Position numbers and translations under genes: made by a program
Origin: Escherichia phage JM17
DNA length: 64,000 nt
Direction: 5' to 3' (one strand)
Sequence record: PP400779
In this document: in pieces, positions 1 through 58,303 of the stretch
How the letters are laid out: every line of letters starts with the position of its first letter
Position numbering within the stretch: position 1 is the first letter of the stretch
The notes under the pieces: generated by a model
The model's input: only the letters and a program-made list of their open reading frames with translations
Told to the model about the DNA's origin: nothing
Database searches by the model: none

Positions 1-452
1 TTCAACAGGAGTTAAGTTCAATCGTTCGTAGAAATTGGACGTCTTCTGTTCCTGAGACAATGTATCGTGGAATCTCTAAGAAAACTATGGCCACACTTGA
101 TGATAAAGGCATTGGTAGTATTATTAAATTTGACAGAGTAATGAGCTTCAGCCCAGTGTTCGGTGTAGCACGTAACTTTGCTTCGTATAATTTTTACGGA
201 ACATTTAATATGTTCTGCATCAAAGATGCACCATTTGCTTTCAACTTCCGTGAACATATGCTTAACATGATTCTGGCTGCGCCATCTTGTGAGTTCAATG
301 GAGCTTTCCCTGAAGCGACAAGACGGTCTAATGCCAGACTTATATCCGACGAATGTGAATTTATGCTCCCTATAGGGACTACACTGCGTGTAGATTCTAT
401 TATTCAAGATGGACGGTATACAATCTGGAATCTGTCTATTCTCGGTTACTGA
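1..452 (+). CDS. ModA/ModB-like ADP-ribosyltransferase, 5' partial (reading frame is open to the window start)
   Basis: Frame stays open upstream of the ATG at 60 back to position 3; Arg, S-x-S and E-x-E (ECE) motifs typical of R-S-E ADP-ribosyltransferases; sits where T4 has modA, beyond srd and dda. Confidence 0.5.
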   Translation, partial: QQELSSIVRRNWTSSVPETMYRGISKKTMATLDDKGIGSIIKFDRVMSFSPVFGVARNFASYNFYGTFNMFCIKDAPFAFNFREHMLNMILAAPSCEFNGAFPEATRRSNARLISDECEFMLPIGTTLRVDSIIQDGRYTIWNLSILGY

Positions 453-49702: not shown

Positions 49703-50035
49703 ATGTCTGAAGTACAACTCCCAATTCGTGCTGTTGGTGAATATGTCATTCTGGTTTCTGAACCCGCTCAAGCAGGTGATGAAGAAGTTACCGAATCAGG
49801 ACTTGTGATTGGTAAACGTGTTCAAGGTGAAGTTCCTGAACTATGTGTAGTTCATTCTGTAGGTCCTGATGTTCCTGAAGGTTTTGTTGAAGTCGGTGAT
49901 TTGACTCCACTACCAGTTGGACAAATTCGAAATGTTCCACATCCATTTGTGGCTTTGGGTCTTAAACAACCTAAAGAAATTAAACAGAAATTCGTAACAT
50001 GCCACTATAAAGCTATTCCGTGTCTTTATAAGTGA
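49703..50035 (+). CDS. 31: gp31 co-chaperonin (GroES-like)
   Basis: 110 aa; [34 protein letters not shown] near-identical to T4 gp31. Confidence 0.93.
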
Positions 50036-50043
50036 TATAAATA
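50036..50043 (+). promoter_or_regulatory. late promoter TATAAATA upstream of rIII
   Basis: Exact tataaata immediately after the gene 31 stop. Confidence 0.45.
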
Positions 50044-50159
50044 ACTATATGAAGAGAACACTCTTCTAAGCGGTAGCCTACAACTGAGAGACTTGTCGAA
50101 AGAAGGTGAAATTCAGACGAACGTGGCTACTAAATATTATCTCGAATTGAGAATTTAAA

Positions 50160-50408
50160 ATGATTAAACAATTACAACACGCTCTTGAACTGCAACGAAA
50201 CGCATGGAATAACGGTCACGAAAACTACGGCGCGTCAATTGATGTTGAAGCCGAAGCACTGGAAATCCTGCGTTATTTCAAACATCTGAACCCGGTACAG
50301 GCAGCTTTGGCCTCTGAACTGGAAGCAAAAGATGAACTGAAATATGCTAAGCCTTTGGCTTCTGCAGCTCGTAAAGCAGTACGTCATTTTGTTATTACCC
50401 TTAAATAA
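50160..50408 (+). CDS. rIII: rIII lysis-inhibition accessory protein
   Basis: 82 aa; MIKQLQHALELQRNAWNNGHENYGASIDVEAEALEILRYFKHLNP matches T4 RIII. Confidence 0.9.
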   Translation: MIKQLQHALELQRNAWNNGHENYGASIDVEAEALEILRYFKHLNPVQAALASELEAKDELKYAKPLASAARKAVRHFVITLK

Positions 50409-50702
50409 GTTTTAGGTGATTCGCTACCTTAGTGCGGCTAGAAAATCGAGGAGCCGTCGAACTGTCTGATTAATGATTTGCGAATCATTATAGTTTTAAG
50501 ACCCCGGCAGTTTTACGGTGTACCTCTTGAATGTATTTTATACTATCACGCGTCAGAAAAAGGTTATCTGTCTAAGTCGTGGTTGGTATGATGACGGGTT
50601 TATGGTTATCCTGTCGTTAAATATCCAAAACCTATGTTCCCCTTGAGGGCTTGCGCAGGCAATGTCAATAAGTCCTGCATTTTCATTTAAAGAGAATTTA
50701 TA

Positions 50703-50882
50703 ATGGCAAAACAAGCTAAAGCAAAGAAAGCAGTTGAAAAGAAAGTTGATGGTACCTCTAAACGCGCTGGATACAAGCGTGGGTCGAACTCTCGTATTAA
50801 TCAAACAGTTGAGAAGATCATGCGCAGAGCACGTGCAGTTCTTCGAGATGATGCTTCTCGTTTTGGAAAGGTTGTTGCATAA
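50703..50882 (+). CDS. possible small basic protein (59 aa)
   Basis: Not in the ORF track; MAKQAKAKKAVEKKVDGTSKRAGYKRGSNSRIN..., Lys/Arg-rich; followed by a strong terminator. Confidence 0.35.
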   Translation: MAKQAKAKKAVEKKVDGTSKRAGYKRGSNSRINQTVEKIMRRARAVLRDDASRFGKVVA

Positions 50883-50887
50883 TTTTA

Positions 50888-50909
50888 GGGAGACTTCGGT
50901 CTCCCTTTT
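50888..50909 (+). terminator. intrinsic terminator (GGGAGAC-UUCG-GUCUCCC plus T4)
   Basis: Same hairpin sequence as the gene 32 terminator, followed by ttttg. Confidence 0.65.
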
Positions 50910-50941
50910 GTGCGTTTAGGGCAGAAAAAGTTTAAAAAGAT

Positions 50942-50970
50942 GTTTACTCTCCTGTAGGATGTGTTACTAT
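50942..50970 (+). promoter_or_regulatory. T4-type early promoter (GTTTAC -35, TACTAT -10)
   Basis: 17-bp spacer. Confidence 0.5.
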
Positions 50971-51012
50971 AGACTTGTACCATCTAATCAATAAAACAAC
51001 CTGGAGAACAAA

Positions 51013-51381
51013 ATGAAAATCAATCTGAACTCATACATCAAATGTAAAGACCACGATGGTTATAAAGCTATCGAAATTAAAGAATTCCAGTGGATGTTAT
51101 ACAAAGAGCAATTTGAGTTCGTAGGTTGTATGACCCCTGAAGGTCCTTCTGATGATTTCTCTTGGAAAATTGTGTTAGCAAACTTTTTCACAGGTGACAC
51201 ATACGAATTAAAAACTATTATTACCGGTAAAATTCGTTCAGAAACATATGTTGACGAAGAAACTGGTTACTCTGAAGATGTTACATGGTATCAAAATGGA
51301 CGCATTACAGCAGATAACCTGATAGAAAAAATGAAAGCCAAAGGTGTTTTAAATTTAGACAATTGGATTAAAGTTGCATAA
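51013..51381 (+). CDS. hypothetical protein (122 aa; gene 30.x region)
   Basis: ORF with ribosome-binding site after the promoter. Confidence 0.5.
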   Translation: MKINLNSYIKCKDHDGYKAIEIKEFQWMLYKEQFEFVGCMTPEGPSDDFSWKIVLANFFTGDTYELKTIITGKIRSETYVDEETGYSEDVTWYQNGRITADNLIEKMKAKGVLNLDNWIKVA

Positions 51382-51385
51382 AACA

Positions 51386-51414
51386 GTTTACTTTGGTACA
51401 GGTTATGTTATTAT
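51386..51414 (+). promoter_or_regulatory. T4-type early promoter (GTTTAC -35, TATTAT -10)
   Basis: 17-bp spacer; -10 flanked by inverted repeat acaggt / acctgt. Confidence 0.5.
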
Positions 51415-51455
51415 AGACCTGTATCAACAAACAACTTAAACATCTGGAGAATAAA

Positions 51456-51821
51456 ATGAACTACACCAACTTCGAACGTAAATATGTTTCTAACGGTATT
51501 GCTGGTTCTTCTGAAGTTATTTGCTTATGGAAACACGAAAACGGTACAGTTTGTGAAATCGAACAGTGCATGACTCCTAATTACGTTTATATGCGATTTG
51601 AAAATGGTATCACGGTTTCAATCACGATGGAAGGTTCAAATTTTAAAATTGCATTAGATGATGATTTCCGTCAGCGTGATTTAGGTACTCATCCTTGCTG
51701 GAATGGTGTTAATCGTAAACTTCTGGTTAAAACTTGGATTCGTCATATCCTGAGTAACCGAGCTAAACCTGAACATCTCGAAGCAATCTTTGATGTAGTT
51801 CTTAACGAATTTGATATCTAA
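51456..51821 (+). CDS. hypothetical protein (121 aa)
   Basis: ORF with ribosome-binding site after the promoter. Confidence 0.5.
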   Translation: MNYTNFERKYVSNGIAGSSEVICLWKHENGTVCEIEQCMTPNYVYMRFENGITVSITMEGSNFKIALDDDFRQRDLGTHPCWNGVNRKLLVKTWIRHILSNRAKPEHLEAIFDVVLNEFDI

Positions 51822-51827
51822 ATTAAT

Positions 51828-51843
51828 TGGGAGCTTCGGCTCC
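51828..51843 (+). terminator. UUCG hairpin without T-run (attenuator or stability element)
   Basis: gggagcttcggctccc followed by actgagg. Confidence 0.3.
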
Positions 51844-51856
51844 CACTGAGGAAATT

Positions 51857-52471
51857 ATGTTTAAAGTTAATACTTTTTATAAAATGAATTTTAAAAATGG
51901 GGATATTACTCCACGCCTTAAAAACATGTTCTCATATGACCTTATTGAGCCTTTTGAAGTTTTAGAAGTTACTGATGCTGGCTCAGTTTGTGAAATTAGA
52001 ACTTCTGAAGGTAAAATTTATCAGGCCGGTGTTGGTAAATTCAGTAATTGTTTTACTTTAATATTCTCGACCGATTTAGATGAGCATTTTATTGAATGTC
52101 CTAACCCTAAGGTCTATGAAGTTCCACATCAAGAAACTAAGAAAAATGGACCGCACGAATATACGAAGGTTGAAACTCCTCACGGCGTGATGTGGCGACA
52201 TAACTCTCCTTTTGGAAGTAAAGGAACATTTGCTCAACTGGCTAAGCCCTACGACGATGAAAAATATGTAGTAGTCCTTTTATCTGAACAGGGTACTCAA
52301 GACCGTGGATGCCAGCGTTCCGGTTTATTGAGTGAACTCGAAGCTCATAACCTAGCACGTGAATTCGTTGAGAAAAATCCTGGTTCTGAAGCTCTAGTCA
52401 TGAAAGCAATTACTCAATATATCACTGCTCAACCTGTTGTTCATCCGGTAGAAATTAATTTCATTAAGTAG
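51857..52471 (+). CDS. hypothetical protein (204 aa)
   Basis: ATG at 51857 with ribosome-binding site GAGGAA after the hairpin; the track start at 51827 lies inside the hairpin. Confidence 0.5.
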   Translation: MFKVNTFYKMNFKNGDITPRLKNMFSYDLIEPFEVLEVTDAGSVCEIRTSEGKIYQAGVGKFSNCFTLIFSTDLDEHFIECPNPKVYEVPHQETKKNGPHEYTKVETPHGVMWRHNSPFGSKGTFAQLAKPYDDEKYVVVLLSEQGTQDRGCQRSGLLSELEAHNLAREFVEKNPGSEALVMKAITQYITAQPVVHPVEINFIK

Positions 52472-52501
52472 TGTACATCCAAGGACGGATTAGAGTATAA
52501 T
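52471..52501 (+). promoter_or_regulatory. early promoter (GTGTAC -35, TATAAT -10)
   Basis: 19-bp spacer. Confidence 0.4.
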
Positions 52502-52525
52502 GATTTCTTTAGTAAGTGGAAAAAT

Positions 52526-52723
52526 ATGAAATTTTTAATAGCACAAACAGTCCAATTAAAAGGTGTTGGAATCCCTGGGATGATTTTTAAAGTTCTCAAC
52601 GAATTTAAAACTGCCGCTGGAATTATCAATGAAGCGTATGCTGTTCAATGGGTTGATGGGACTTCTGACATACGTATGGGTAAAGAGTTATCTCCTATTA
52701 AAGGGTTGAAACATGTTGAATAA
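52526..52723 (+). CDS. hypothetical protein (65 aa)
   Basis: ORF downstream of the promoter. Confidence 0.4.
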   Translation: MKFLIAQTVQLKGVGIPGMIFKVLNEFKTAAGIINEAYAVQWVDGTSDIRMGKELSPIKGLKHVE

Positions 52724-52931
52724 ATTAATCCAGAAATTGTTTGGTACGGAAATGATTGAAGTTACTTATCGTGTAACCGACGTTTTTCCATATTACGCGG
52801 AAAACCGTTTAGAACCATACGTTACGTCAATTAAAATGCCTAAAAATGACAGAAATTTATCTATCGAAGACCGTATACCTGGATACGGACATTGGGCTGA
52901 TGTTGAAATTATAAGTGTTAAAGATGTCTGA
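52713..52931 (+). CDS. hypothetical protein (72 aa)
   Basis: Overlapping coupled ORF. Confidence 0.4.
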   Translation: MLNKLIQKLFGTEMIEVTYRVTDVFPYYAENRLEPYVTSIKMPKNDRNLSIEDRIPGYGHWADVEIISVKDV

Positions 52932-53382
52932 ATTAGAAATAAGAAGTAATTTCAAATGGCCGTCATGTGCATTAAGTAACTTTGCTCAATGGCCTTTTGT
53001 TATGGATGGTATTCAATTCGGAGGTCTTGAAGGATTTCTCCAAGGATGTAAGGTGAAAAATGTTGAACAACAAAGACGTATATTTGGGTTGTCTGGATTG
53101 GCTGCACAACAAGCTGGAAGGTCTTACGCAAGAGCTCAGGACCGTGGGACTCTCTTCTGGTTAGGAGTTCCATTTTCAAGATACTCCGAAGCGTGGAAAG
53201 AATTATACACAAATGCATATTTTGAAGCCGCGATCCAAAACAAGGGGTTTCGTGATGCCTTACAAGCCTCTAAAGGAAAAATTTTGAAGCACAGCATGGC
53301 CAGCCACCTAACAAAAGATGATACAATACTAACTGAAGATGAATTTATTGACGTGTTAAACCTATTAAGAGACTCTTTATGA
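52924..53382 (+). CDS. NADAR (YbiA-like) domain protein
   Basis: LSNFAQWPFVMDGIQFGGLEGFLQGCKV parallels the YbiA/NADAR core FSNFAAWP..DG......E.YFQ..K; ATG at 52924 (GTG at 52915 also possible). Confidence 0.55.
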   Translation: MSELEIRSNFKWPSCALSNFAQWPFVMDGIQFGGLEGFLQGCKVKNVEQQRRIFGLSGLAAQQAGRSYARAQDRGTLFWLGVPFSRYSEAWKELYTNAYFEAAIQNKGFRDALQASKGKILKHSMASHLTKDDTILTEDEFIDVLNLLRDSL

Positions 53383-54143
53383 AGCCTACTATTTTGACTG
53401 ATATTGATGGTGTATGTTTAAGCTGGCAATCTGGACTTCCTTATTTTGCCCAAAAATATAACCTTCCATTAGAACATATTTTAAAAATGATTCAGGACGA
53501 AAAATTTATTTCTCCTGGTAAACTGTTCAATACCGACGATAACCTTGGTAAACAATTAATAGAAAAATATAATAGCTCTGATTTTATTCGTTACTTAGCG
53601 CCTTATTCTGATGCTCTTCGAGTTATCAATAAACTAAAAGAAGACTATAATTTTGTAGCCGTGACGGCGCTAGGTGATTCAATTGATGCTCGATTGAATA
53701 GACAATTTAATTTGAATGCTTTGTTCCCAGGCGCTTTCTCTGAAGTAATGATGTGTGGTCATGATTCTTCAAAGGAACAATTATTCGAACTAGCTAAAAC
53801 AAAATATAACGTAATTTGTTACGTTGACGATTTAGCTCATCATTGTGACCATGCGGCAGAAATTCTTAATGTACCGATTTATTGGTTGGCTCGTGGTGAA
53901 CGTGATGCCATTCCTCGTACTGCACAACGTGTACACACGTGGGATGATATTGAATCTCGTTTGGTTCCACCTGAGCATAATTCAGATTCAGATCGTGAAG
54001 ACCTTTTAAAACGATTGGCGGATTTGCTTAAAGAATCTGGTGCAACAAGTCCAGGTGCATGGCCTAATCAAATTGGTGGCCCCTCGACAACACGTACTCC
54101 ATATACCTGGCGAACCACAGGACCAACTGATATGCAGCCGTAG
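53379..54143 (+). CDS. HAD-superfamily hydrolase-like protein
   Basis: 254 aa; N-terminal motif I ILTDIDGV (D-x-D-x-V); coupled to the NADAR ORF. Confidence 0.4.
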   Translation: MKPTILTDIDGVCLSWQSGLPYFAQKYNLPLEHILKMIQDEKFISPGKLFNTDDNLGKQLIEKYNSSDFIRYLAPYSDALRVINKLKEDYNFVAVTALGDSIDARLNRQFNLNALFPGAFSEVMMCGHDSSKEQLFELAKTKYNVICYVDDLAHHCDHAAEILNVPIYWLARGERDAIPRTAQRVHTWDDIESRLVPPEHNSDSDREDLLKRLADLLKESGATSPGAWPNQIGGPSTTRTPYTWRTTGPTDMQP

Positions 54144-54212
54144 TGGACGATTCAAAACTTTCCTTTAGATTCGTCTAAATGGACTTGGTCTATAAATTGT
54201 TAAGGGTTAATT

Positions 54213-54482
54213 ATGTTTGTAGTTCATGATATTACAGATGGCAAAAATACCACACGTGACTACGGTCACGTTAACATGTTCTTTCGAGACTGGCCATTGT
54301 TTCGTTCAGTAAAAGACGCAGAAATATTTAAAGAGTGTGTTGAACAAGGGTTCATCTACATTTCAGAATACTATGTTGAAGGACTCGGTAAATGGATTAC
54401 CACTTATCAGAAAACGCTGAAATCGCTTCTAGATGAAGTGGCTTATAATAGAACCGTAACCAAAATCGAGGATATCAAATGA
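54213..54482 (+). CDS. hypothetical protein (89 aa)
   Basis: ORF whose stop overlaps the ligase start. Confidence 0.45.
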   Translation: MFVVHDITDGKNTTRDYGHVNMFFRDWPLFRSVKDAEIFKECVEQGFIYISEYYVEGLGKWITTYQKTLKSLLDEVAYNRTVTKIEDIK

Positions 54483-55972
54483 TTTTAGATATTTTAAACC
54501 AAATAGCTGCGATCGGTTCTACTAAAACAAAACAAGAAATCCTTAAGAAAAATAAGGACAACAAATTACTTGAACGTGTGTATCGTTTAACATATGCACG
54601 TGGTATCCAGTATTATATTAAGAAATGGCCAGGACCGGGTGAAAGGTCTCAAGCGTATGGACTTCTTGAATTAGATGACATGTTGGATTTTATTGAGTTC
54701 ACATTAGCCACTCGTAAACTCACCGGTAATGCTGCAATTAAAGAGCTCATGGGTTATATCGCTGACGGTAAACCTGATGATGTAGAAGTCCTTCGTCGTG
54801 TAATGATGCGCGACCTTGAAGTAGGTGCTTCAGTGTCTATCGCGAATAAGGTGTGGCCTGGACTTATTCAATTGCAACCACAGATGTTAGCATCTGCGTA
54901 TGACGAGAAATTGATTACTAAAAATATTAAATGGCCTGCATTTGCCCAATTAAAAGCAGATGGTGCTCGTTGTTTCGCTGAAGTTCGCGATGATGGTGTT
55001 CAATTCTTTTCTCGTGCCGGTAACGAATACCACGGTCTTACTCTATTAGCGGATGAACTGATGGAAATGACTAAAGAAGCTCGTGAAAGACACCCTAATG
55101 GGGTTTTAATCGACGGCGAATTAGTTTATCATTCATTTGATATTAAAAAGGCTGTGAGCTCAGGAAATGACCTGTCGTTCTTATTTGGGGATGATGAAGA
55201 ATCCGAAGAAGTACAAGTTGCAGACCGTAGCACTTCAAATGGTTTAGCAAATAAATCTCTTCAAGGGACTATTTCTCCTAAAGAAGCTGAAGGTATGGTT
55301 CTTCAAGCCTGGGACTATGTTCCTTTAGATGAAGTCTATTCTGATGGCAAAATTAAAGGTCAGAAATACGATGTTCGTTTTGCTGCTCTTGAAAATATGG
55401 CTGAAGGCTTTAAACGAATTGAGCCAATTGAAAATCAGTTAGTTCGTAATCTTGACGAAGCTAAAGTGGTTTATAAAAAATATGTTGACCAAGGTCTTGA
55501 AGGTATTATCCTTAAAAACCGTGATTCATATTGGGAAAACAAACGTTCTAAGAACCTAATTAAATTTAAAGAAGTTATTGATATCGCTTTAGAAGTTGTA
55601 GGATACTATGAACACTCTAAAGACCCTAACAAATTAGGTGGTGTCGAACTCGTATCACGTTGTCGTCGTATTACAACCGATTGTGGTTCAGGGTTTAAAG
55701 ATACAACTCATAAAACAGTTGATGGTGTAAAGGTTCTTATTCCTTTAGATGAGCGACATGATTTGGACCGTGAACGATTAATGACCGAAGCTCGTGAAGG
55801 TAAATTGATTGGACGTATTGCTGATTGCGAATGCAATGGTTGGGTTCATTCTAAAGGACGTGAAGGCACTGTAGGTATTTTCCTCCCAATTATTAAAGGG
55901 TTCCGTTTTGATAAAACAGAAGCGGATTCGTTTGAAGACGTATTTGGACCGTGGTCCCAGACAGGTTTATAA
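54479..55972 (+). CDS. 30: ATP-dependent DNA ligase (gp30)
   Basis: 497 aa; MILDILNQIAAIGSTKTKQEILKKNKDN and the adenylation lysine motif in AQLKADGARCF match T4 DNA ligase. Confidence 0.93.
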   Translation: MILDILNQIAAIGSTKTKQEILKKNKDNKLLERVYRLTYARGIQYYIKKWPGPGERSQAYGLLELDDMLDFIEFTLATRKLTGNAAIKELMGYIADGKPDDVEVLRRVMMRDLEVGASVSIANKVWPGLIQLQPQMLASAYDEKLITKNIKWPAFAQLKADGARCFAEVRDDGVQFFSRAGNEYHGLTLLADELMEMTKEARERHPNGVLIDGELVYHSFDIKKAVSSGNDLSFLFGDDEESEEVQVADRSTSNGLANKSLQGTISPKEAEGMVLQAWDYVPLDEVYSDGKIKGQKYDVRFAALENMAEGFKRIEPIENQLVRNLDEAKVVYKKYVDQGLEGIILKNRDSYWENKRSKNLIKFKEVIDIALEVVGYYEHSKDPNKLGGVELVSRCRRITTDCGSGFKDTTHKTVDGVKVLIPLDERHDLDRERLMTEAREGKLIGRIADCECNGWVHSKGREGTVGIFLPIIKGFRFDKTEADSFEDVFGPWSQTGL

Positions 55973-56160
55973 TGAAAGCTTATTTAGAAACAGTTATTGT
56001 AGCTAAGAAGGATGGTGGAAACATCTCCACCTCTTGCTCTCAGATTATATTAGATTTTCCTAATAACGATTCCTATCATATTTTTATGGACAATTTCGAT
56101 AAGTACGAAAAAGGCTCTAATTTTGAAGTTTATCGTACTTTGCTTCCGATTGTGGATTAA
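55972..56160 (+). CDS. hypothetical protein (62 aa)
   Basis: ATG overlaps the ligase stop. Confidence 0.4.
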   Translation: MKAYLETVIVAKKDGGNISTSCSQIILDFPNNDSYHIFMDNFDKYEKGSNFEVYRTLLPIVD

Positions 56161-56180
56161 GAGCCTTCGGGCTCTTTTTG
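56161..56180 (+). terminator. intrinsic terminator (GAGCC-UUCG-GGCUC plus T5)
   Basis: gagccttcgggctc followed by ttttt. Confidence 0.6.
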
Positions 56181-56181
56181 G

Positions 56182-56195
56182 CATAAATATAAATT
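56182..56195 (+). promoter_or_regulatory. possible late promoter (one mismatch to TATAAATA) for alt
   Basis: cataaatataaatt about 25 nt upstream of the alt start. Confidence 0.3.
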
Positions 56196-56215
56196 ATTAC
56201 TAAAAGGAAAACACT

Positions 56216-58303
56216 ATGTCTGAACAATTAAATGAAGTGTTTGAATCTGAAGGCAGTCTTCCTGTCGTCAATTTGAACCCTAAAGCTAAAGTTCCACAAG
56301 TCTGGAAAATTGGTGATATCGATACAAATATTGTAGTTCGTTTATTCTCTTACCTTTCCGAAGGCGACGCTGTAAAACAAGTTAAACTTGGCGACAAATA
56401 CGCCCATGTTGTTATTATGAGTCTGTCTGAAAAGGGTAATCTAGCTGAATTGAAAAATGGCCTTGGTCCTGCTCCTATTGATGCAATCAACACTATTTTC
56501 AATACAGTATATGAACAGGTTAAAGCTCTTCGTATGGATGCAGTTCTGTTCCGATTCCCTACCAAGAAATTGAAAGGACGTGGACAACAGCTTCAAACTC
56601 TTCTTGCTCGTTTAGTTTCTACTAAAACCGGTGGTCGTTTTAAAGTATTGTCGGCAATGTATCAATTCACAGGTAAACACACCTATGTGATGATGGTTCG
56701 TAAAAATGCCAACATTGAAGATATTAAAGGCATCCCTAACATTAACACAGAGTTGTACACGAAAGTAGATTCTGATGTTGGCGAAGTTTATGTGAGTAAA
56801 AAGACCGGCGAAACGGTCACCAAAGAAACGGCTATCGCAGGTTCTATTGCTGCTGTAGAAGAAAAACGTAAAGATAAACCTGTTATTGCTCGTACTAAAA
56901 TTTCTCGTCGTGCTATTGCAGCAAGTCAATCTTTAGAAGCTGACCGCCAAGAAGGTGAGTTATTCCAGAAATACGAAAATTCTGCTAAAGAAGTTAGTGG
57001 CCCGGCTACAGCCGAATTACTTCCTGAAGCATATGAAATCGTACTAGCCCAAGCATCATCCACAGCAAAAGGCACTTTAGTTGCTGATATCGAAAATAAG
57101 ATTTATAATCGTATTGATGAATCCTTTAGATTTGCCGATGAAGTTTCTTATGGTAGTGTTATTAAGCCAACTTTAGAAAAGTTTGCTAAGAAAATTAAAA
57201 CCGAAAAAACAACATCTGTTAAAGCATTAGCTGCTTTTGTTGAAGCTGCAAATGAAATTGCAGACTCTATTAGAGACGAATGGTTTGAAGATTTTAGACG
57301 AGATAATTTCCAACTGGCAGACGACGTTTTAGCTGAAGTATCTGAAAAAACTTGGAAACAACGTAAATCAGCGTTCTTGTCTAATGTGATGTATACTTAT
57401 GCACGAGAATCGGCTAGAGGCACCTTTAATATAACAATGAATCGGGACCCTAAACAATACTCTGTTGCTGAAAAACGAGCTATTCGTGAATATGCCTCTT
57501 CTGCGTATACCGATATCAACAATATGTTGTTAGGTCGTTATAAACCAGATTTTTACGATGTTGCAGATGAAGATGAAGTTAAACGCGCTATTGATGGTCT
57601 TGATTCGGCGTTTTTAAATGGAGATCGTTTACCTGAAGGACTAACGTTATATAGAGCTCAGTCTATCAGAATGCCTATTTACGAAGCAATGGTTAAAAAT
57701 AAGGTATTCTACTTCAGAAACTATGTTTCCACTTCACTAGCTCCTATTATTTTCGGCGGGTTTAAAGAGAACGTTGCCCTTGGACTTGCTCCTGAAGAAG
57801 TTCGCAAAGAGCTTAACATTGACAATAATGACGAAGGTGTTACTATTTCTCCTAGCCTGGTGCGTACCGCTATGCATGCGCCAGAACAAATTCGTGTTAA
57901 TGTTGGATGGGCTATTGATGGCGCCCATAAAGTTAACGTGATTTATCCGGGACAGTTGAGTAATCACCCTAATGAGCAAGAAATTATTTTGCCTAGAGGC
58001 ATTCTCTTGCAGATAAATAAAATTACAGATGCGTCATCTGACACTGGTGCAGGTTTAGAATCCAACCTTAAATTTATTCAAGCTGAAGTCATGTCCTCGG
58101 ACCAGTTGGACGAAGCTGTCATTTACGATGGTGATGTTCTCATGGAAACAGGCGAGGTAGTTGCTATGACGGGTGAAATCGAATCAGATGAGCCGGTATC
58201 TTTTGCCTCATTTGTAGAAAAAACTAGTGCACCTAAAGGTTTGAAATTGTTAGCATCTTTAATGGATTTAGAATCAGTTCCGTTTAAATTTGTCCAAGGA
58301 TAG
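56216..58303 (+). CDS. alt: Alt ADP-ribosyltransferase (head-packaged)
   Basis: 695 aa; C-terminal LYRAQSIRM...VFYFRNYVSTSL and final KFVQG match T4 Alt. Confidence 0.9.
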   Translation: MSEQLNEVFESEGSLPVVNLNPKAKVPQVWKIGDIDTNIVVRLFSYLSEGDAVKQVKLGDKYAHVVIMSLSEKGNLAELKNGLGPAPIDAINTIFNTVYEQVKALRMDAVLFRFPTKKLKGRGQQLQTLLARLVSTKTGGRFKVLSAMYQFTGKHTYVMMVRKNANIEDIKGIPNINTELYTKVDSDVGEVYVSKKTGETVTKETAIAGSIAAVEEKRKDKPVIARTKISRRAIAASQSLEADRQEGELFQKYENSAKEVSGPATAELLPEAYEIVLAQASSTAKGTLVADIENKIYNRIDESFRFADEVSYGSVIKPTLEKFAKKIKTEKTTSVKALAAFVEAANEIADSIRDEWFEDFRRDNFQLADDVLAEVSEKTWKQRKSAFLSNVMYTYARESARGTFNITMNRDPKQYSVAEKRAIREYASSAYTDINNMLLGRYKPDFYDVADEDEVKRAIDGLDSAFLNGDRLPEGLTLYRAQSIRMPIYEAMVKNKVFYFRNYVSTSLAPIIFGGFKENVALGLAPEEVRKELNIDNNDEGVTISPSLVRTAMHAPEQIRVNVGWAIDGAHKVNVIYPGQLSNHPNEQEIILPRGILLQINKITDASSDTGAGLESNLKFIQAEVMSSDQLDEAVIYDGDVLMETGEVVAMTGEIESDEPVSFASFVEKTSAPKGLKLLASLMDLESVPFKFVQG

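Follow-up and report, generated by a model that had tools for sequence, protein, structure and literature searches.

Shortly upstream of the DNA ligase gene of Escherichia phage JM17, a NADAR-like reading frame runs into a HAD-like one, and the locus raises the question whether the two genes form one counter-defence system against DarT-type toxins. An earlier note had proposed such a role for the NADAR-like frame and had described it as coupled to its HAD-like neighbor. We analyzed a stretch of 64,000 nucleotides from sequence record PP400779, here called the window. It belongs to a Mosigvirus (T4-like) genome, and Escherichia phage FL18 is 99.9% identical. Both reading frames are genuine and lie on the + strand (52924-53382 and 53379-54143). 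In tblastn searches the 30.3 protein was matched in 1510 and the gp30.2 core in 1439 phage records, and the frames are therefore not a product of chance. The pair indeed lies between rIII and the ligase gene, in the following order:

About 50159-50407: rIII, by correspondence with phage mogra
52713..52931, + strand: gene 30.4 homologue, directly upstream of adfN (phrog_2042 at 2.4e-35; annotated in T4 and mogra)
52924..53382, + strand: adfN, orthologue of T4 gene 30.3; 152 aa, full length, NADAR-superfamily DNA ADP-ribosylglycohydrolase by its T4 orthologue
53379..53382, + strand: four shared letters, ATGA, in which adfN stops and 30.2 starts, read from the sequence
53379..54143, + strand: orthologue of T4 gene 30.2; 254 aa, HAD superfamily, C1-capped, NT5C-like putative nucleotidase
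54213-54482, + strand: gene 30.1 (DUF3045), downstream of 30.2, by Pfam match
54479-55972, + strand: gene 30, ATP-dependent DNA ligase (PF01068), downstream of 30.2
56216-58303: alt (PF03496, 2.8e-28)

Very probably, this locus combines an intact adfN with an independent, NT5C-like HAD phosphatase, gp30.2, and the overlap of the two genes is a matter of conserved gene order. The ATG at 52924 is the start annotated in T4 (MSELEIR...), and it overlaps the stop of gene 30.4 (TGA 52929-52931); the mechanically longest reading frame begins at a GTG at 52915. T4 and the window agree in the order 30.4, 30.3, 30.2 and in the overlaps between these genes. The ATGA overlap is consistent with translational coupling of adfN and 30.2. 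A scan of positions 50000-56400 revealed no excess of promoter-like sites (21 versus 19.7 in shuffled sequence) or of terminator-like sites (4 versus 4.2). T4 ORF 30.3', an internal frame in an alternative register, was considered as part of the system and rejected, having 34 codons here versus 75 in T4.

The 30.3 protein of the window is 96% identical to its T4 counterpart NP_049816 (146 of 152 residues, equal length) and matches the Pfam family PF08010 (Phage_30_3) over positions 1-138 of the 138 profile positions (2.1e-69; 232.1 bits, cut-off 36). Published work names T4 gp30.3 AdfN and describes it as a DNA ADP-ribosylglycohydrolase of the NADAR superfamily, both necessary and sufficient for overcoming the toxin-antitoxin defence DarTG1 (Nat Commun 2025, PMC11825919; Toxins 2024, PMC11125620). 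Hence, the idea of a NADAR protein acting against DarT is right, and it is not new but largely already known. In published in vitro assays AdfN alone strips ADP-ribose from DNA, and the resistance that it confers depends on catalysis; in the T4 protein, E36A and K43A abolish the anti-DarTG1 rescue. The YbiA/NADAR core pattern that had been noticed at 52924 is present in full (S18-N19-F20-A21-x-W23-P24 ... D28-G29 ... E36-x-F38-x-Q40-x-x-K43) and is mostly invariant among 55 homologues. The positions of interest are:

53029..53052, + strand: codons of the catalytic residues E36 (53029-53031, GAA) and K43 (53050-53052, AAG), invariant in 55 homologues
53290..53292, + strand: codon of H123 (CAC), the histidine of the phage clade in the last strand, invariant in 55 homologues
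53334..53382, + strand: intact 3' end of adfN with the C-terminal helix (residues 138-152), from alignments with T4 and RB69

A profile search against NADAR families, which had been proposed as a check, gave a divided answer. The window protein alone found nothing in Pfam NADAR (PF08719) at E≤0.1 and is filed in its own family, PF08010, but 21 of the 55 homologues did match PF08719 (best 1.5e-7). Moreover, the 30.3 family profile matched E. coli YbiA (2b3w; E 0.005) over the catalytic stretch, where the SNF...E.F.Q..K segments of the two align. A direct sequence search of the PDB with AdfN returned no match. YbiA and DarG1, the BC4488-type NADAR antitoxin associated with DarT1, belong to the same superfamily as AdfN, and according to the cited papers all three hydrolyze the N-glycosidic bond of ADP-ribose linked to guanine. 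They differ at a position in the last strand, which holds His in the phage clade, Asp in DarG1 and Glu in YbiA; this histidine, where other NADARs have Glu or Asp, is the signature of the gp30.3 clade (PMC11125620). The clade groups nearest to the DarT1-associated NADARs, lacks the N-terminal extension of DarG1 and represents an orphan NADAR with no linked toxin.

Window and T4 AdfN are separated by six substitutions (K11R, E89P, I120V, M125I, H129G and D139A; window residue, position, T4 residue), none of which falls on a catalytic position, and E36, K43 and H123 are common to both. While T4 is a Tequatrovirus, the window phage is a Mosigvirus like RB69, the type species of that genus, in which adfN is frameshifted. 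Truncation of the RB69 protein has been linked to DarTG1 sensitivity. The T insertion that causes this truncating frameshift is missing from the window gene, as alignments to T4 and RB69 showed at both the DNA and the protein level. Judged by its sequence, the window adfN would thus be of the intact, active type, with an activity like that of T4 AdfN. Its product, a single-domain NADAR enzyme, is expected to hydrolyze the N-glycosidic bond between ADP-ribose and guanine in DNA; in this way it would reverse the modification that host DarT1 places on replicating phage DNA and would permit growth on hosts carrying DarTG1. We can confidently annotate an intact counter-defence gene against DarTG1 in this genome. 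Unlike its relative RB69, the phage is predicted to be DarTG1 resistant, which bears on host-range prediction for therapeutic T4-like phages.

It had also been suggested that the phage both writes and possibly erases ADP-ribosylation, as two ADP-ribosyltransferase genes, alt and a modA-like gene, accompany adfN. All three are present. The modA-like gene is real, a call that rests on how phage moha, 98.4% identical, is annotated, but it is cut by the window start, and no more than its 3' end, up to position 452, falls inside. The suggestion conflates different substrates, however. By annotation, Alt and ModA ADP-ribosylate RNA polymerase, and hence protein, whereas AdfN acts on ADP-ribose that DarT1, a toxin of the host, has attached to guanine in DNA.

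We then turn to the second gene. The DIDGV stretch that had pointed to a HAD hydrolase is motif I of a complete HAD set, and the fold was confirmed. All four motifs are found in gp30.2, D8 and D10 being invariant in 100 homologues:

53400..53414, + strand: motif I, D8-I-D10-G-V (residues 8-12), with the nucleophile Asp and the Asp+2 acid/base
53664-53666, + strand: motif II, T96, kept in at least 90% of 100 homologues
53772-53774, + strand: motif III, K132, invariant in 100 homologues
53826-53831, + strand: motif IV, D150-D151, kept in at least 90% of 100 homologues

A single-sequence AlphaFold model was unusable (pLDDT 41.7), and we used an AF2 model built on the 100-sequence alignment, which reached a pLDDT of 87.5 with a core mostly above 90. 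The protein has a Rossmann-like core and a C1-type cap after motif I; this cap, helical and about 80 residues long, lies between motifs I and II and contains many invariant residues. Foldseek with this model gave 113 PDB matches at E≤1e-3, with cdN/mdN among those of lowest rmsd, and many viral structural neighbors are annotated as 5'-nucleotidase. Against Pfam HAD_2 the protein scored 16.3 bits (E 0.011), under the cut-off of 23.8, so that the HAD assignment is carried by fold and motifs.

Within the superfamily, gp30.2 most closely recalls the NT5C nucleotidases (cdN/mdN; PF06941; 2jao, 2i7d, 1mh9, 3bwv). Both have the HAD core, a DxDGV motif I, a helical C1 cap and an aromatic residue eight positions past the nucleophile; the invariant W16 of gp30.2 aligns here with the Phe of mouse cdN (2jao). 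The same mouse protein was the only match in a sequence search of the PDB, and a marginal one (E 0.08-0.1). Identity to NT5C proteins is only 15-19%, and unlike these gp30.2 has an extra C-terminal tail of 55-80 residues, which varies between lineages and is modeled with low confidence. The window protein did not match PF06941 at E≤0.1, and 5 of 36 close homologues did so weakly (best 0.0029). Among 139 distant relatives, NT5C was the commonest specific Pfam family (40 relatives, best 4.2e-10), with a single one (P0280) over the cut-off (36.4 bits against 24.8). These results describe gp30.2 as like or related to NT5C, not as a filed member. NCBIfam offered no informative family for gp30.2, and the longer proteins of its family (430-660 aa) carried no informative extra Pfam domains. 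Literature searches on 'gp30.2', T4 gene numbers and phage deoxyribonucleotidase returned no relevant paper, no function for gp30.2 and no experimental data on any of its homologues. We propose that gp30.2 is a HAD phosphatase that depends on Mg2+ and bears a helical C1 cap. Its substrates are most likely small molecules, namely (deoxy)nucleoside monophosphates as in the NT5C family, a substrate class that we infer, and the enzyme would act independently of AdfN.

This independence has to be reconciled with the tight linkage of the two genes. The overlap with the HAD gene is real here but is not conserved across T4-like phages, and adjacency of 30.3 and 30.2 is lineage-specific. Seen from the 30.2 side, 30.3 abuts 30.2 or lies within about 1.2 kb of it in 36 of 73 loci (49%), and these include distant Acinetobacter, Karamvirus-like and jumbo T4-like phages. 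Counted from 30.3, the genes abut in about 14 of 80 loci; counted from 30.2, they do so in 19 of 73. In about half of the loci the 5 kb around 30.2 do not contain 30.3. Klebsiella Jiaodavirus phages have gene 30.3 elsewhere, and about 59 kb separate it from 30.2 in Klebsiella phage AShe-2020a. One locus (L046) shows a third arrangement, in which a distant HAD gene lies two genes upstream of 30.3. The best-conserved neighbors of 30.2 are genes 30.1 and 30 (54213..55972), with the ligase gene at most 5 kb downstream in 68 of 73 loci (93%). Fusions of NADAR and HAD domains were absent among 82 gp30.3 homologues, all of 254 aa or less. Genome-level co-occurrence was rejected as evidence of coupling; it is uninformative because each of the two genes is common among the records of T4-like phages and they reach similar numbers in each host genus.

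Could the two genes nevertheless form a functional module? In two published studies T4 AdfN failed to relieve the toxicity of DarT1 in E. coli cells that were not infected, and one of these studies posits a T-even potentiating factor. AdfN may thus not act wholly alone, since rescue by the T4 protein fails outside T-even infection. If gp30.2 were this factor, or the second step of an ADP-ribose/NAD-linked counter-defence pathway, this would account for the contrast between the activity of T4 AdfN in vitro and its failure in such cells. The HAD enzyme might stabilize or localize AdfN; alternatively, it might act on a phosphorylated precursor or product, for example an NAD precursor or a compound from the breakdown of ADP-ribose. 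Either way, this would make DNA de-ADP-ribosylation effective in vivo. The overlap and co-orientation of the genes speak for such a module, as do their proximity in roughly half of the loci, distant phages included, and the arrangement in L046. Ectopic AdfN is fully effective in RB69, which has its own intact 30.2, and the variable C-terminal tails contain short aromatic motifs that could bind partners. The cited AdfN papers report no test of 30.2, which leaves room for the idea. On the other hand, in the other half of the loci 30.3 is not found within 5 kb of 30.2, a fusion is not seen, and the association of 30.2 with the ligase gene is far closer than that with 30.3. No obvious chemistry joins a phosphomonoesterase to N-glycoside hydrolysis, and more than 100 other T-even genes of no assigned function are equal candidates. 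We regard a role of gp30.2 as potentiating factor or second pathway step as quite improbable.

The constancy of the ligase gene downstream of 30.2 would fit a different partnership, in which gp30.2 is a nucleic-acid end-healing 3'-phosphatase working with the adjacent ATP-dependent ligase gp30, in the way that T4 polynucleotide kinase, through its HAD phosphatase domain, works with RNA ligase. Like the HAD domain of this kinase/3'-phosphatase (PseT), gp30.2 is a phage HAD phosphatase with a DxDGT/V motif and a ligase gene nearby; one distant relative matches Pfam HAD_PNKP, and PNKP-like phage proteins are among its viral structural neighbors. However, gp30.2 has no kinase domain and carries the large conserved cap with its many invariant residues. 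HAD C1 caps enclose small substrates, while PNKP-type phosphatases, which act on polynucleotides, have no cap. The similarity to Pnk is confined to the 127-residue Rossmann-like core, NT5C matches outnumber PNKP by 40 to 1, and a conserved order in core regions of T4-like genomes need not mean shared function. We give an end-healing role little probability. Highly unlikely, in our view, is a reading in which soluble compounds, and not ADP-ribosylated DNA, are the main substrates of the 30.3 protein. These could be free immune signals derived from ADP-ribose, or N-glycosides of the riboflavin pathway like those of E. coli YbiA, and the HAD enzyme might dephosphorylate the same small molecules. 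A comparative-genomics survey of 2022 predicted low-molecular-weight ADP-ribose derivatives as the main targets of phage NADARs, the family profile does match YbiA, and one source annotates a gp30.2 homologue (P0039) as 'FMN phosphatase YigB'. This label is an automatic annotation of one homologue without NCBIfam support, though, and the gp30.3 clade has His for the YbiA-type Glu and sides with the DarT1-associated NADARs. Later experiments with T4 AdfN demonstrated removal of ADP-ribose from DNA and a resistance to DarTG1 that runs through its catalysis.

With an intact adfN and an independent phosphatase as the preferred reading, the tight overlap would reflect a gene order kept in the 30.x-ligase-alt cluster and not a demonstrated two-enzyme pathway. 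Potential novelty lies in gene 30.2, a nucleotidase-like HAD gene that is catalytically intact by its motifs, recurs across the phage records matched above and clusters with the genes for AdfN, DNA ligase and the Alt ADP-ribosyltransferase. The two published studies leave unexplained why AdfN has its full effect only during T-even infection, and gp30.2 is a low-probability candidate for the answer.

The core of gp30.2 comprises about residues 1-200, followed by the variable tail, and the tail is cut short in the window:

54141..54143, + strand: amber stop (TAG), TGG (Trp255) in the closest relatives, from alignment with phage mogra

This stop removes the final 20 residues of the tail, which is longer in RB69 and mogra. 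The annotation of phage FL18 contains an identical 30.2 gene of 765 nt.

The 2 kb at 52500-54500 share 99.9% identity with Escherichia phage FL18 and 99.7% with phage mogra, and on this sequence comparison the window phage is T4-like and belongs to the genus Mosigvirus, as FL18 and mogra are classified. The T4 gene order is kept from rIII to alt, and the positions and motifs that the earlier note had given for a NADAR-like and a HAD-like ORF, here 30.3 (adfN) and 30.2, proved correct:

about 50159-50407, rIII
between rIII and 30.8, 30.9
51013-51381, 30.8
51456-51821, 30.7
51827-52471 (+), lineage-specific 214-aa gene
52526-52723, 30.5
52713-52931, 30.4
52924-53382 (+), 30.3
53379-54143 (+), 30.2
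54213-54482, 30.1
54479-55972, 30 (DNA ligase)
between 30 and alt, alt.1
56216-58303, alt

Gene 30.3 starts, as annotated in T4, with the ATG at 52924, which overlaps the stop codon of 30.4. Both genes are widely conserved: tblastn matches number 1510 phage records for 30.3 and 1439 for the core of 30.2. The 214-aa ORF (204 aa in the mogra annotation; phrog_17531) stands where T4 carries the 95-aa gene 30.6; it had no Pfam match, and its N-terminal part shows weak similarity to phrog_622 and phrog_8920. The counterpart of T4 30.3', internal to 30.3 in an alternative frame (53060-53164, +), is shortened to 34 codons, compared with 75 aa in T4; 30.3' is therefore not conserved here and is probably not a real gene.

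The window gp30.3 (AdfN), 152 aa long, aligns to T4 gp30.3 without gaps at 96% identity and scores 232 bits against the Pfam family Phage_30_3 (PF08010). It retains E36, K43 and H123, which are invariant in 55 homologues. Although the protein alone gave no match to the NADAR family PF08719 in the Pfam search (E<=0.1), 21 of the 55 homologues match it (best 1.5e-7), and the family profile finds E. coli YbiA (2b3w) across the catalytic segment (E 0.005). By these comparisons gp30.3 is linked to NADAR at the family level. The proposal of an anti-DarT NADAR protein was right, the 96%-identical orthologue having been characterised and its function being already known from published experiments. Phage NADARs have been named 'gp30.3 proteins', set apart by a last-strand histidine, and the T4 enzyme cleaves guanosine-linked but not thymidine-linked ADP-ribose off DNA (Toxins 2024, PMC11125620). 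Phage crosses mapped DarTG1 resistance to 30.3, renamed adfN, which was necessary and sufficient, and rescue was abolished by E36A and by K43A (Nat Commun 2025, PMC11825919; preprint 10.1101/2024.07.11.602962). The DarTG1 sensitivity of RB69 was traced to insertion of a single T in its adfN, which costs the protein its last 15 residues (PMC11825919). Comparison with RB69 revealed that this insertion is absent from the window adfN, which therefore encodes the C-terminal helix. AdfN alone strips ADP-ribose from DNA in vitro, yet T4 AdfN does not rescue uninfected E. coli from DarT1 toxicity (PMC11825919, PMC11125620). In non-T-even phages its rescue is only partial, and unmodified T4-GT7 is still resistant (PMC11825919).

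An N-terminal extension may be present in some members of the gp30.3 family or in some constructs. The PHROG 652 profile has 296 positions, of which the window protein aligns only to 126-272, and the T4 NADAR construct is described as 'gp30.3; residues 1-208' (PMC11125620, Methods 4.2), compared with 152 aa annotated (NC_000866).

It had also been suggested that the phage both writes and erases ADP-ribosylation. The two ADP-ribosyltransferase genes are indeed present: alt is confirmed by its PF03496 match, and modA lies at 1-452 (+), 5'-truncated by the window start, which leaves roughly its last 150 codons. The next gene is srd, at 606-1343; the ORF listed at 60-452 had no Pfam match. The substrates, however, differ. 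Alt and ModA are annotated in the records as RNA polymerase ADP-ribosyltransferases, hence their target is protein, whereas AdfN is specific for guanine-linked ADP-ribose put on DNA by the host toxin (PMC11125620, PMC11825919). We conclude that AdfN, the eraser, opposes the writer of the host and not those of the phage itself.

The remaining interest lies in the HAD enzyme gp30.2 and its possible relation to AdfN; our literature search found no paper on gp30.2 function. The window protein (254 aa) shares 69% identity with T4 gp30.2 over its whole length, rising to about 85% across the first 200 residues. The HAD reading was borne out by four motifs conserved in 100 homologues (D8xD10 and K132 invariant; T96, D150 and D151 kept in at least 90%) and by a confident AlphaFold model built from their alignment (pLDDT 87.5, core mostly >90). 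Between motifs I and II, W16, S18, L20, F43, Y64, N65, S67, L73 and D78 are invariant, and F50 and Y72 are kept in at least 90%. The sole PDB sequence match was mouse cdN, a 5'(3')-deoxyribonucleotidase of the NT5C family (E about 0.1), in which a Phe eight residues past the nucleophile aligns with W16. The lowest-rmsd structural matches of the model include cdN, mdN and 3bwv, and 5'-nucleotidase is a frequent annotation among viral structural neighbours. An exhaustive profile search gave 1018 cluster representatives at E<=1e-3; among 139 of the more distant of these NT5C was the commonest specific Pfam family (40/139, best 4.2e-10), and one passed its curated cut-off. Since the window protein itself passed no curated HAD or NT5C threshold in Pfam, we call it NT5C-like rather than a family member. 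Sequence and model point to a putative HAD phosphatase with intact catalytic motifs. In Klebsiella phage Roth17 the homologue (locus L082, 3300-4337) carries the annotation '5' nucleotidase' (345 aa) and starts ~200 nt upstream of the segment that matches the window protein, an N-terminal extension by annotation only, and the adjoining ligase is labelled 'PNKP adenylyltransferase domain protein'.

The coupling of the two ORFs holds in the window, where the 30.3 stop and 30.2 start share ATGA (4-nt overlap), but is only partial across T4-like phages. Among 80 IMG/VR loci surveyed from the 30.3 side, 30.2 abuts 30.3 in about 14, every one of them Tequatrovirus/Mosigvirus-like; six have it 0.7-1.2 kb downstream and one has it upstream, in distant form; in the remaining loci it is absent within 5 kb. 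In that one locus (L046, 3736-5456, from a divergent 166-kb T4-like genome) a distant 190-aa HAD (LLTDIDGCVLNW...) stands two genes ahead of the 30.3 homologue; the T4 order is reversed, and the pair has a third layout. The converse survey, starting from 30.2, covered 73 loci whose flanks measure at least 3 kb: 30.3 lies upstream within about 1.2 kb in 36 (19 abutting, 17 at 89-1216 nt), and the other 37 have no 30.3 within 5 kb. DNA ligase follows within 5 kb downstream in 68 of the 73 and alt in 55. Klebsiella Jiaodavirus phages keep 30.2 in a 30.2-30.1-ligase-alt block and 30.3 in a separate early-gene block; in Klebsiella phage AShe-2020a some 59 kb separates the two. None of 82 gp30.3 homologues is a NADAR-HAD fusion.

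The most economical reading is that AdfN and gp30.2 are two independent enzymes, adjacent through conserved gene order. That gp30.2 is instead the T-even potentiating factor posited for AdfN would fit RB69, in which ectopic AdfN works fully and 30.2 is intact; the partial synteny and the lack of an obvious chemical link between the two proteins, however, make this very improbable. A rival reading, in which gp30.2 is a DNA-end 3'-phosphatase in the service of the adjoining ligase, draws on the strong synteny with that gene, but is disfavoured by the large conserved cap, as such caps normally enclose small substrates in the HAD classification.

The C-terminal 55 residues of gp30.2 differ between lineages, and residues 227-241 have pLDDT <50. 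In the window 30.2 ends in an amber TAG (54141-54143) where mogra has TGG (Trp255); RB69, mogra and a 274-aa homologue cluster (P0001, 238 member sequences) carry ~20 extra residues (WWTIQNFPLDSSKWTW(T/S)INC). Since the FL18 gene (765 nt) is shortened to the same length, this last stretch appears dispensable, at least in these two isolates. The tails (window 53979-54143; homologues P0001-P0099) fall into several lineage-specific types, each with a short aromatic/hydrophobic motif close to its end: GTGIEYLxxQPT (T4/Klebsiella types), LRAYY, DYxLLNKVTAND and WTWSINC (Mosigvirus). Judged from sequence, these might be partner-binding linear motifs; IEYLY is loosely similar to LDFLF, the motif by which T4 gp43 binds the clamp.
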